The notes under the pieces are model-generated. The model ran no database searches. It saw only the letters and a program-made list of their open reading frames with translations, and was not told where the DNA came from. 21,220 nt of DNA from Candidatus Baldrarchaeum yapensis (GTDB taxonomy: Archaea > Asgardarchaeota > Baldrarchaeia > Baldrarchaeales > Baldrarchaeaceae). The stretch lies in NCBI GenBank assembly GCA_016840465.1, contig JAEOSH010000040.1, forward strand, positions 1-21,220, read 5' to 3'. The translations under genes were made by a program, and so were the position numbers. Below, piece by piece: positions 2,344 to 4,289 of this stretch (position 1 is the stretch's first letter; every line of letters starts with the position of its first letter).

Positions 2344-2850
2344 ATGCCAAGCTGGGGAAGGGCCTTTGTGGTGGCGATAAAGGTCTTCTTGGTGGGACTC
2401 ATCTGGGCAATAATCGGGCAAATCATCATATGGATCGGTAGTTCGATGCTAATCGCCGCGCTCATTCCCGAACTCCAGCATGCTCAGAGACCTGAAGAGG
2501 TGTTACCATACGTCGGCCAGATGGTCGCAATAATGCTCCCCCTGCTAGTAGTTGGAGCGATAATAACCACGATCGGCGTCTACGCGACCCTCATAAAGTA
2601 CACGGTAGATGAGGCCGTTAAGGAGTGCAGGTCCATTCAGTCCCAGTACCCCGCATATCAGCCGTACCAGTACACGTATCCCGGTCCCCCGGCTCAGGTT
2701 ACGGAGGCAAAACCAATAAGGGTATGCCCAGTTTGCAAATCGGCTGTTCCGGAAGATGCCGTGTTTTGTCCAAATTGCGGGGCCAAATTGACGGGCGGTG
2801 CAGAAGAAACTACGGGTACGGGAACTCATGGCCACAGTAAGGGCATTTGA
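2344..2850 (+). CDS. Membrane protein (2-3 hydrophobic segments) with a Pro/Gln/Tyr-rich linker and C-terminal zinc ribbon
   Basis: ATG at 2344 follows GGTGG, with TATAAAAG at ~2317-2324. Hydrophobic N-terminal half, a YPAYQPYQYTYPGPP linker, then CPVC-x10-CPNCG. The track start at 2224 is probably too early. Confidence 0.8.
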   Translation: MPSWGRAFVVAIKVFLVGLIWAIIGQIIIWIGSSMLIAALIPELQHAQRPEEVLPYVGQMVAIMLPLLVVGAIITTIGVYATLIKYTVDEAVKECRSIQSQYPAYQPYQYTYPGPPAQVTEAKPIRVCPVCKSAVPEDAVFCPNCGAKLTGGAEETTGTGTHGHSKGI

Positions 2851-2977
2851 TGTATCCACAGCTTCCCAGTGCAGATGATGGGCAACCCTGGCAACTTATT
2901 GCTCTGGCATATGAGATGTCGAAGCGCGCGCCACATCTTGGGCACGTTATCAAGTTTCTCCCTCTTGCCACGTTCAT
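2810..2977 (-). CDS. Small Cys-rich (7 Cys) metal-binding protein
   Basis: ATG at 2977 follows GGAGG, with TTTAAA at ~3028-3033. MNVARGRNLITCPRCGARFDISYARAISCQGCPSSALGSCGYIKCPYCGHEFPYP contains CxxC, CxxCP, C and CPxC. Confidence 0.8.
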   Translation of the reverse strand: MNVARGRNLITCPRCGARFDISYARAISCQGCPSSALGSCGYIKCPYCGHEFPYP

Positions 2978-3199
2978 TCCTCCTTTTATGTCCTTAGCAT
3001 GCATTAGGATATTACGCTCTTAAGAGATTTAAAAATTCTCAAAGGAAGATCGATATTGACGTAGCAAGTGGGAGCATTATGCCATTAATCGCCACTCCGT
3101 ACTGTTACTTGACACCATTATTCACAACTCTCACATTAGCAAGTGGCGCGACTCACACACTTACCTACACCGTTCTGATTCTCCGCTACTTTTGTTGCA

Positions 3200-3353
3200 A
3201 TTGACGCGTGTGCGGCGGAAAGCCTTCCCGTCTCGGGGTCCATCGACGGGCTTTCGCGGGGAGCGGTACTCCGCACATCCATCTGACCCTCGCTCCGCCC
3301 TTTCGGGCTTCCCTTCCTCTCACCGTCCCTCCCACATCCCGGGCGGAGCCCGC
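3200..3353 (-). ncRNA. Unidentified GC-rich structured non-coding RNA
   Basis: About 68% GC by hand count over 3201-3350, between AT-richer flanks. Stems: GCTCCGCCC/GGGCGGAGC (3292-3300 with 3341-3349), TGTGCGG/CCGCACA (3209-3215 with 3271-3277), AAAGCC/GGCTTT and CCCGTC/GACGGG, plus a GCCC-GAAA-GGGC GNRA hairpin in the minus sense. A TATA-like element lies about 25 nt upstream. Confidence 0.6.
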
Positions 3354-3370
3354 TTAACACAACAGAAGTC

Positions 3371-3386
3371 CTTTATAAGGGTTTTG
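3371..3386 (-). promoter_or_regulatory. Probable BRE/TATA promoter for the 3200-3353 RNA
   Basis: Minus strand CAAAACC-CTTATAAAG, a purine-rich BRE-like run followed by TTATAAA. It predicts a start near 3350-3353, exactly where the GC-rich stems begin. Confidence 0.55.
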
Positions 3387-3500
3387 AGGTTGCAAAGGTG
3401 CGTGAAGGCAGCAAATGCAACACTATACGTTTCTGCCCCTCTCACCTCTCGTCGAGCATACCACTTTCATCGTACTTTGACGGTCATGGAAAATAAATTG

Positions 3501-3524
3501 GAAATTTTGAATAATCAAAATTTC
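3501..3524. repeat. Perfect 10-bp inverted repeat with 4-bp spacer (possible operator)
   Basis: GAAATTTTGA-ATAA-TCAAAATTTC. The repeat is seen directly; the function is inferred. Confidence 0.5.
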
Positions 3525-3704
3525 ACACAACTAATGTCTAATCCTATCATTCGTACCGGATCGTATACATTGATGAAGGATACTATTTGTGATACGAAGA
3601 TCACTATGGTAATGGTATGAGAATTTGCGTAGCAATTGATGATATGCTGTTGCTTCTCCGGTAATCGTTAGCACATGCGTCAGGTGGGGCGATAAAATAG
3701 GAAA

Positions 3705-4001
3705 TTACGTGATGTAGGAGAGAGATCTTGTGGATGCCCTCGTGGAGGGGGTGGGTTCTCCCTCCCTCTCGTCAGCAAGGGTGTGGAGGAGTTTACATAT
3801 CATTTCGAGGGACTTGCTTACCTCCATCAGGGAACTATCAACCTTGTCTTCGAATCTGTCCATAACTTCTATTACCAAGCGGAGGACGCTCTTTAGTGAT
3901 TCAACTTCTTTGCTAAGCCTCTCCAAGGCCTTCTCGAGTTTCTCTATTTTGGTCGCCATTTCCATTGTGGGTACCCTAGTGATCGAATGCATACCCTCCA
4001 T
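3705..4001 (-). CDS. Small hypothetical coiled-coil protein
   Basis: 98-aa ORF with heptad-like KIEKLEKALERLSKEVESLKSVL and GTGAT upstream of the ATG at 4001. The start could be at a later Met. Confidence 0.65.
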   Translation of the reverse strand: MEGMHSITRVPTMEMATKIEKLEKALERLSKEVESLKSVLRLVIEVMDRFEDKVDSSLMEVSKSLEMICKLLHTLADEREGEPTPSTRASTRSLSYIT

Positions 4002-4289
4002 ATATCACTTTTGTTAGGTATGATATCAAAATAGTTTTCTGGACAAAAACAATAATATGCCGGAAACATGTGGACATTACTGCAATCTTTTTGCACATCC
4101 CAAAAAGATCCTTTGAAGTTGCTCAAATCGCCAATTCCTTAAGGATCCACTCGATTGGTAAATCTCTTCCTCTCGACAAAATGGCATGCAAACATTTAGT
4201 TTTATGCTCGCCGCCGCGTGGTGCCTTAGTGGTAGAAATTTAAACTGATGGGAAGTAAGATATGCCAAACCTCTCGCGGGTAGGTTTAC

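Follow-up and report, generated by a model that had tools for sequence, protein, structure and literature searches.

What is encoded by a GC-rich intergenic island of an Asgard archaeon that is preceded by its own promoter-like motif? The island lies at positions 3200–3386 of a 21,220-nt stretch of Candidatus Baldrarchaeum yapensis DNA (hereafter the window; coordinates without a contig name refer to it). Its GC content is 67.5% at 3200–3350 and 62% over 3200–3386, compared with 49% for the whole window and 38–41% for the flanking intergenic DNA, and the 3200–3350 region is the top 150-nt bin by GC in the window. In a previous sequence-only reading, the island was described as a structured RNA expressed from the minus strand by an archaeal promoter, and two identities were considered: an undescribed non-coding RNA, or a leader of the Cys-rich gene lying downstream. 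The elements on which this description was built (the ~68% GC island, the perfect stems and, on the minus strand, a GAAA hairpin together with a BRE/TATA-like motif ~22 nt 5' of the first stem) are all present in the sequence (Table 1). No oligo-T run was seen 3' of the stems.

The statement that the island matches none of the known RNA classes was borne out as well. Rfam covariance models gave no match when the whole window was scanned at the gathering score, nor when the interval 3000–3600 was scanned at E<=10; the families without a match include RAGATH-18, SRP RNA, RNase P, H/ACA and C/D RNAs and riboswitches. ARAGORN revealed neither tRNA nor tmRNA. Since the single-sequence fold energy of the island is about that of shuffled sequence (z = -0.05 on the minus strand and -0.39 on the plus strand), the case for a structure has to be made from comparison with relatives. 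From the analysis described below, we conclude, with a probability of roughly 0.85, that the island is the omega-RNA (guide-RNA) scaffold of a TnpB nuclease, carried by a gene-less mini-transposon derived from an IS607 element.

Table 1. Location of the mini-element and its predicted functional parts in the window
Feature	Position	Strand	Remarks
Whole gene-less IS607-derived mini-element (MITE-like, no terminal inverted repeats)	3170–3439 (270 bp)	-	Borders from blastn and multiple alignment
GGGG at the junction with the left end, a TAM-like target motif including the GG core dinucleotide	3436–3439	-	17 left ends compared
Left end (LE), common to the IS607 element of contig C96	3390–3435	-	Conserved in all copies; match to C96
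BRE/TATA-like promoter; motif AAAACCCTTATAAAG at 3386–3372, TATA box TTATAAAG at 3378–3371	3371–3386	-	Conserved in 14 of 14 aligned copies, including the ~74% identical ones on C75 and C76
Predicted omega RNA 5' domain: 9-bp stem 1, GCUCCGCCC (3349–3341) / GGGCGGAGC (3300–3292); purine-rich loop; alternative GCCC-GAAA-GGGC hairpin (3308–3297)	3292–3349	-	Remnant of TnpB zinc-ribbon codons
Predicted hairpin H1: UGCGG (3275–3271) / CCGCG (3259–3255)	3255–3275	-	3 of 5 pairs with compensatory changes, 28 sequences
Predicted hairpin H3: 6-bp stem CCCGUC (3250–3245) / GACGGG (3232–3227), conserved loop AUGRA...GAG	3227–3250	-	4 of 6 pairs with compensatory changes
Predicted long terminal hairpin H4: 3224–3212 / 3189–3177	3177–3224	-	9 of 11 pairs with compensatory changes
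GAACGG, scaffold end and right end (RE), finishing in the GG core; proposed pseudoknot 3' strand	3170–3175	-	Alignment of copies
Predicted guide segment, flank directly 3' of the right end	3150–3169	-	Flank differs in every copy

The Island Is Part of a Dispersed 270-bp Element

A DNA search of the genome from which the window comes (a 2.27-Mb assembly of 100 contigs) gave 17 matches to the interval 3190–3390. When window positions 2500–4200 were compared with this genome by blastn, at least 12 copies were nearly full and 87–98% identical over ~270 bp (most of them 94–98%), two more, on contigs C75 and C76, are ~74% identical, and several lie at contig ends. In at least 12 copies the similarity breaks off sharply at 3169/3170 and 3439/3440, and in the multiple alignment the flanks of the copies are unrelated on both sides. 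Therefore, the unit is a 270-bp mobile element and not a locus-specific RNA or the leader of a neighboring gene. A covariance model of the RNA (R1) recovered 21 copies in the same genome; the mini-element occurs about 14–20 times in this Asgard archaeal genome.

The only open reading frame across the island encodes 74 aa. Its product has no match in Pfam, and the copies differ from each other by frame-breaking indels of 1–3 nt; we read it as a non-coding ghost of the TnpB C-terminus. The element is thus short, non-coding and multi-copy, and it shares its ends with an autonomous element of the same genome. The terminal inverted repeats and target-site duplication of the strict MITE definition were not found in the alignment of copies, as expected for IS607.

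Several irregular copies should be mentioned. Contig C39 (1–297, aligned to window 3169–3464) opens with 25 nt identical to the left flank of the window copy; next comes a separate copy of the element, 97.6% identical, and beyond it a right flank unlike that in the window. Either the assembly was joined here because of the repeat, or strains differ at the window locus. Contig C76 carries a shorter complete variant at 24190–24416, with a left end of 16 nt and a shortened stem-1 loop, and a solo left end at 22491–22537, 1.7 kb upstream, with a V4R-domain gene between the two. An element with ends 1.9 kb apart bracketing the V4R gene as cargo was considered and dropped, and two separate remnants are the more likely explanation. 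Weaker matches to the omega model, of 37–63 bits, were found at C23 23391–23516, C1 27147–27295 and C89 81–228, where the right ends deviate (CAGAACGA, CAGACAGT and GAGAACGG, respectively).

The Parent Is an IS607 Element of the Same Genome

Both ends of the repeat were found 1.85 kb apart on contig C96 (26176–28026), where they bracket tnpA and tnpB genes. The TnpA protein (204 aa) matches the Pfam families Resolvase (6.4e-26) and HTH_17 (3.9e-14), and also MerR, at 4.3e-05 and 23.7 bits, which is below the Pfam cutoff of 28.2. The tnpB gene lies directly downstream of tnpA and overlaps it; its product (436 aa) matches Cas12f1-like_TNB (1.4e-21), and the closest solved structures in the PDB are Fanzor2, Cas12f and TnpB, at 2e-11 and weaker. 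By inspection, this TnpB keeps the RuvC-like D/E/D motifs and the zinc ribbon. With a serine-recombinase TnpA bearing an N-terminal MerR-like HTH and with tnpB adjoining it, the C96 element is assigned to the IS607 family on its gene content. In a tblastn search of the genome, no tnpB other than that of C96 matched the repeat; two further IS607 copies are distant.

Nucleotide alignment with the C96 element gave three matches. Window positions 3393–3438 correspond to C96 26221–26176, the left end just upstream of tnpA; positions 3292–3350 correspond to the zinc-ribbon codons of tnpB; and positions 3170–3287 correspond to the last ~115 nt of the element. The RNA region as a whole aligns to the last ~60 tnpB codons and the right end, and remnants of the zinc-ribbon and C-terminal peptides can still be read in it. 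Compared with C96, the mini-element is devoid of tnpA, of most of tnpB and of ~85–95 nt of intervening coding spacer. That the segment 3170–3439 is an IS607 mini-element with an omega scaffold is, in our estimation, very probable indeed.

Structure and Covariation of the Omega RNA

The sequence encoding a TnpB guide RNA lies at the 3' end of tnpB; the scaffold stops at the transposon right end, and the flank serves as the guide (PMC8612924, PMC10055086). A protein search with the C96 TnpB yielded 47 related loci in Bathyarchaeia, other Thermoproteota, Archaeoglobi, Thermococcus and Asgard MAGs. In ~30 of the 47, an nhmmer profile of the window RNA region matches the 3' end of tnpB through a 3' domain of ~120 nt. 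The window RNA region is homologous to the 3' end of the C96 tnpB and to the right end of that element, the place expected of a TnpB omega RNA. As no Rfam family matches it, it is placed among the omega RNAs by its position, its architecture and the link with tnpB.

The architecture was studied in an alignment of 28 sequences, for which 500 shuffles and helices with their partners slid by 1–3 columns served as controls. RNAalifold predicted three helices with 23 pairs, 16 of them showing compensatory changes (H1, H3 and H4 in Table 1). Paired cells make up 95% of the alignment at these positions, compared with 82% in the shuffles and 37–50% in the slid controls; the covariation score is 0.374, compared with 0.14 in the shuffles, none of the 500 reaching 0.374. 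G-U pairs are frequent (for instance, one pair is UG in 23 of the 28 sequences, and another is GU in 11), and since these would be A·C mismatches on the plus strand, the minus strand is the functional one. Covariation in relatives, which had been proposed as a check of the earlier description, is strong.

The codons of the C96 tnpB with which the 5' domain aligns spell CPICG...NGRR. Stem 1 of this domain covaries (GC/CG, CG/GC/AU) within the zinc-ribbon coding region of 23 full-length tnpB loci and is paired in 12–14 of 14 copies from the own genome. By comparison with C96, precisely the two domains with structure were retained in the mini-element, while the spacer between them, which is unstructured, is gone.

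It had also been suggested that GGGUC (3289–3285) pairs with GACCC (3240–3236) in a pseudoknot. Both strings are there, and as letters the suggestion stands; as a family feature the pairing was rejected, for its fourth and fifth pairs are kept in only 9 of 13 and 8 of 14 copies, respectively, and its 5' strand is absent from the full-length relatives. A different pseudoknot is probable from the alignment and is preferred here: in the family the H1 loop CCGUUC is complementary to the terminal GAACGG, with 97.6% of cells paired and no double changes, both strands being invariant. In the window copy this loop reads CCGCUC (3266–3261), which leaves one C·A mismatch with the terminal GAACGG; two further C·A mismatches are found in the terminal hairpin. 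The R1 score of the window copy, 116 bits, is the lowest of the 12 close copies (145 for the C96 parent), and this copy may be slightly decayed.

Promoter and Neighboring Gene

At the place where the mini-element has its TATA box the C96 element has tnpA codons, and the promoter is therefore a feature of the mini-element. The earlier description of a structured RNA on the minus strand, preceded ~22 nt upstream by a TATA box that is conserved among the copies, is supported; the suggestion of a possibly undescribed RNA is not, in favor of an omega RNA of an IS607-family TnpB. From the TATA spacing, transcription is predicted to start at ~3351–3346, at the foot of stem 1. In unrelated gene-less families (C82 5700–5959 and loci of genomes G004 and G001), a TATA box is likewise located 22–27 nt before the structured start. 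In full-length elements, the omega RNA is probably processed from the tnpB mRNA (PMC10278001).

The Cys-rich gene is a 64-aa zinc-ribbon ORF on the minus strand (2810–3004), in the same orientation as the element, which lies ~165 nt upstream of it. It has a TATA-like run of its own, TTTTTAAA, 26–33 nt 5' of the ATG. The promoter of the mini-element faces this ORF with no terminator in between, and read-through could affect its expression.

Element Ends and the Guide Segment

The ends of the element are alike as direct, not inverted, sequences, CAGAAACG on the left and CAGAACGG on the right. Among 17 left ends compared, the four nucleotides upstream of CAGAAACG are GGGG in 10, TGGG in two, AAGG in two and GAGG in one, so that GG precedes 15 of the 17 left ends in the genome. 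On the right, 20 model matches from the own genome were tabulated: 15 finish in the full CAGAACGG and 17 in GG, and the sequences diverge afterwards. A GG core is thus found at both junctions of an element that has no terminal inverted repeats, as in the IS607 family. In the characterised IS607 element CboIStron, a GG core is required by the transposase TnpA(S), TGGG serves as the TAM, the scaffold ends in ...UCGG, and the C at position -3 guards the occupied site against self-cleavage (10.1101/2023.11.20.567912). The same protection logic would apply to the mini-element, where ACGG at the right end stands against GGGG or TGGG at the left.

Similarity among the copies stops after GAACGG (3170), at the very border of the element, and the 20 nt that follow the right end are unlike in every one of the 20 tabulated copies. 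Guides of published TnpB systems have ~16–20 nt, and the length of the predicted guide was taken from them. A search of the own genome for second targets of the 20 guides gave no second full match, and the partial matches were at chance level. The missing oligo-T terminator is expected for such an RNA because an omega RNA crosses the end of the transposon into the flank, which supplies the guide.

Distribution and Sister Families

Of 121 genomes sampled from the phylum, 20 contain matches to R1, and in five of these the RNA has expanded to 10–25 copies; several matches in other genomes have no adjoining tnpB. The omega-RNA family as a whole is spread over the Asgard phylum, Thermococcus, Archaeoglobi and Thermoproteota MAGs.

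Other gene-less elements of similar design were also revealed. A second family in the own genome (C82 5700–5959; about 2401–2660 of locus L018) agrees with the window element in left end, terminal hairpin and GAACGG right end and has a TATA box of its own, CTTTATAT; the GC-rich RNA core inside it is different, and its R1 score is only 32.6 bits. Two genomes from the same order contain gene-less elements that form a sister family (loci L074, on G004:C291, and L075, on G001:C110), with zinc-ribbon codon remnants, the left end GGGCAATAACATAGAGTG, the TATA box ATTTATAT and an omega 3' domain ending in CAGAACGG; in these, the architecture looks to have originated independently. At locus L080 (G033:C27), two omega 3' domains (313–417 and 519–620) are arranged in tandem ~200 nt apart; the second is preceded by tnpB-like zinc-ribbon codons, and a run of N lies between the two.

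Proposed Mechanism

According to the proposed model, the minus strand of 3170–3439 is a 270-bp non-autonomous IS607 derivative that keeps the left end, a TATA promoter and an omega scaffold (stem 1, three covarying hairpins and the probable loop-to-3'-end pseudoknot), the scaffold ending exactly at the right end ...GAACGG at 3170. Transcription from near 3350 would proceed through the scaffold and across the right end, the flank from 3169 to about 3150 providing a guide of 16–20 nt. We infer that this RNA would be bound in trans by the single cognate TnpB of C96 and that the element would be mobilised by the C96 TnpA. The serine recombinase would excise the element at the GG core; the resealed (G/T)GGG, followed by the guide match, would then be cut by TnpB, and the element would be restored by recombination from a sister copy. 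An occupied site, which presents ACGG and not GGGG or TGGG, would be spared self-cleavage. Such homing, comprising excision, cutting by TnpB and restoration, is established for TnpB of both IS605 and IS607. Active expression of the mini-element RNA and its loading in trans by TnpB have, in our judgment, a little better than an even chance of taking place.

Alternative Explanations

Among the other explanations, the best supported is that the element is inert: an IS607 deletion derivative, mobilisable now or in the past, whose RNA part is leftover tnpB 3' sequence that is neither transcribed into a working guide nor employed by TnpB. The structure could persist without selection in copies that are mostly so close to each other, the window copy has three helix mismatches, and the right-end sequence is needed for recognition by TnpA in any case. 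However, the deletion took out the unstructured spacer precisely and left both covarying domains; the spacing between TATA box and stem 1 is that of a promoter in every copy, the ~74% identical ones included, and in independent gene-less families elsewhere; and the diverged copies still score 83–114 bits with the structural model R1. Longer-term retention is argued for only by the C75 and C76 copies and by the independent families of other genomes. On balance, we consider an inert relic improbable, though it deserves to be kept in mind.

Much less probable is a domesticated use, in which the omega RNAs serve regulation or defence by guiding TnpB, or a relative without nuclease activity, to targets of host or foreign origin. 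TldR transcription factors provide a precedent for such use of guides, and many guides per one nuclease, each with its own promoter, would fit it. At the same time, each guide matches its own flank only, no second genomic target being present; the cognate TnpB retains the RuvC-like motifs and the zinc ribbon; and the elements keep their transposon ends.

The leader (or riboswitch) of the Cys-rich gene, which was the second identity considered before, is just as hard to uphold. Its attraction lies in the common orientation, the ~165-nt distance, the absence of a terminator before the TATA-like T-run of the gene and the read-through from the element promoter, which could incidentally alter expression of the gene. 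However, at least 13 other copies have unrelated flanks and adjoin no homologous genes, the gene has its own TATA-like run, and no riboswitch matched. Finally, a novel cellular RNA with a host function, to which a GC island with a promoter and without Rfam, tRNA or tmRNA matches would point, is barely credible, for the island is multi-copy, has sharp transposon-type borders and unrelated flanks, is homologous to the tnpB 3' end and the IS607 right end, and in other genomes is attached to tnpB.

Implications

The preferred reading, an omega-RNA scaffold on an IS607-derived mini-transposon, explains what appeared to be a new class of non-coding RNA: behind a GC-rich, promoter-driven and terminator-less island of an archaeon there can be a mini-transposon with an orphan gene for a TnpB guide RNA. 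Such islands would be annotated better with a model of the archaeal IS607 omega-RNA family, comprising four covarying helices and the probable pseudoknot.

A broader proposal is more tentative, and we rate it at somewhat less than an even chance: one tnpB may serve about 14–20 dispersed guide-RNA genes, each equipped with a promoter and its own guide, the scaffold may be naturally minimised, and this route may have been taken recurrently in Asgard archaea. If true, a single nuclease would here be supplied naturally with many guides in trans. The scaffold would be minimised to stem 1 and the 3' domain, the spacer of ~85–95 nt being dispensable, and the independent TATA-bearing gene-less derivatives in other Asgard genomes would represent a recurrent evolutionary route for IS607 guide RNAs. 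Conceptually, these elements would be intermediate between guides tied to a transposon and guide genes that stand alone. That non-autonomous elements home and are retained is already established for relatives. The shortened scaffold and the compact TnpB from hydrothermal archaea would be a reasonable start for tests of trans-acting guides.

Comparison With Known Systems

The mini-element resembles classical prokaryotic MITEs in that it is short (270 bp), non-coding, multi-copy, mostly intergenic and an internal-deletion product of an IS from the same genome; unlike them, it has neither terminal inverted repeats nor a target-site duplication, and it is a MITE in the loose sense only. Stand-alone omega RNA loci of OMEGA systems have reportedly been described by Altae-Tran et al. 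in 2021, and the mini-element is similar to these in being a protein-less, multi-copy scaffold served in trans. The omega RNA of ISDra2 TnpB, an IS605 element studied by cryo-EM, overlaps the tnpB 3' end, contains multiple stems and a pseudoknot and has its guide directly 3' of the right end. All three properties have counterparts here; unlike in ISDra2, the transposase belongs to another family, the TAM is different, and no sequence similarity between the RNAs was detectable.

The closest parallels are the IS607 systems CboIStron (10.1101/2023.11.20.567912) and ISFba1 (PMC11061315), with which the parent element shares a Resolvase/HTH TnpA together with TnpB. As in IS607 systems, a GG core is found at both junctions, a G-rich TAM-like motif stands on the left ((G/T)GGG here, TGGG in Cbo), and ...CGG closes the scaffold at the right end, the guide coming from the flank beyond. 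The scaffold, of ~180 nt here and 187 nt in ISFba1 (PMC11061315), has several stem-loops and a pseudoknot, the latter a probable one here. Unlike CboIStron and ISFba1, the window copy has neither tnpA nor tnpB, and its RNA has its own archaeal TATA promoter. RAGATH-18 is an Rfam motif from which bacterial IS607 TnpB guide RNAs derive (PMC11061315); unlike that of ISFba1, the archaeal RNA matches neither this nor any other Rfam family in sequence or structure. Scaffold and tnpB coding region overlap in the archaeal relatives of full length, whereas the guide RNA of ISFba1 is separate from coding sequence (PMC11061315).

Gene-less IS200/IS605 elements (PATE-like) often encode omega RNAs for use in trans (Meers et al., PMC10055086). 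Like these, the mini-element is protein-less and multi-copy, keeps the transposon ends and the scaffold, and would need both TnpB and TnpA in trans. However, PATE-like elements are bacterial IS605 elements with a Y1 transposase, ssDNA hairpin ends and a TTGAT-type TAM, while a serine recombinase of the IS607 type, a GG core, a TATA box and an Asgard archaeon are involved here. In the limited literature that was searched, no report of gene-less IS607 omega-RNA elements in archaea was found. Gene-less IS605 omega elements and bacterial IS607 guide RNAs are thus the known part of the picture, and the new part is an archaeal, IS607-derived example whose RNA family is not in Rfam.
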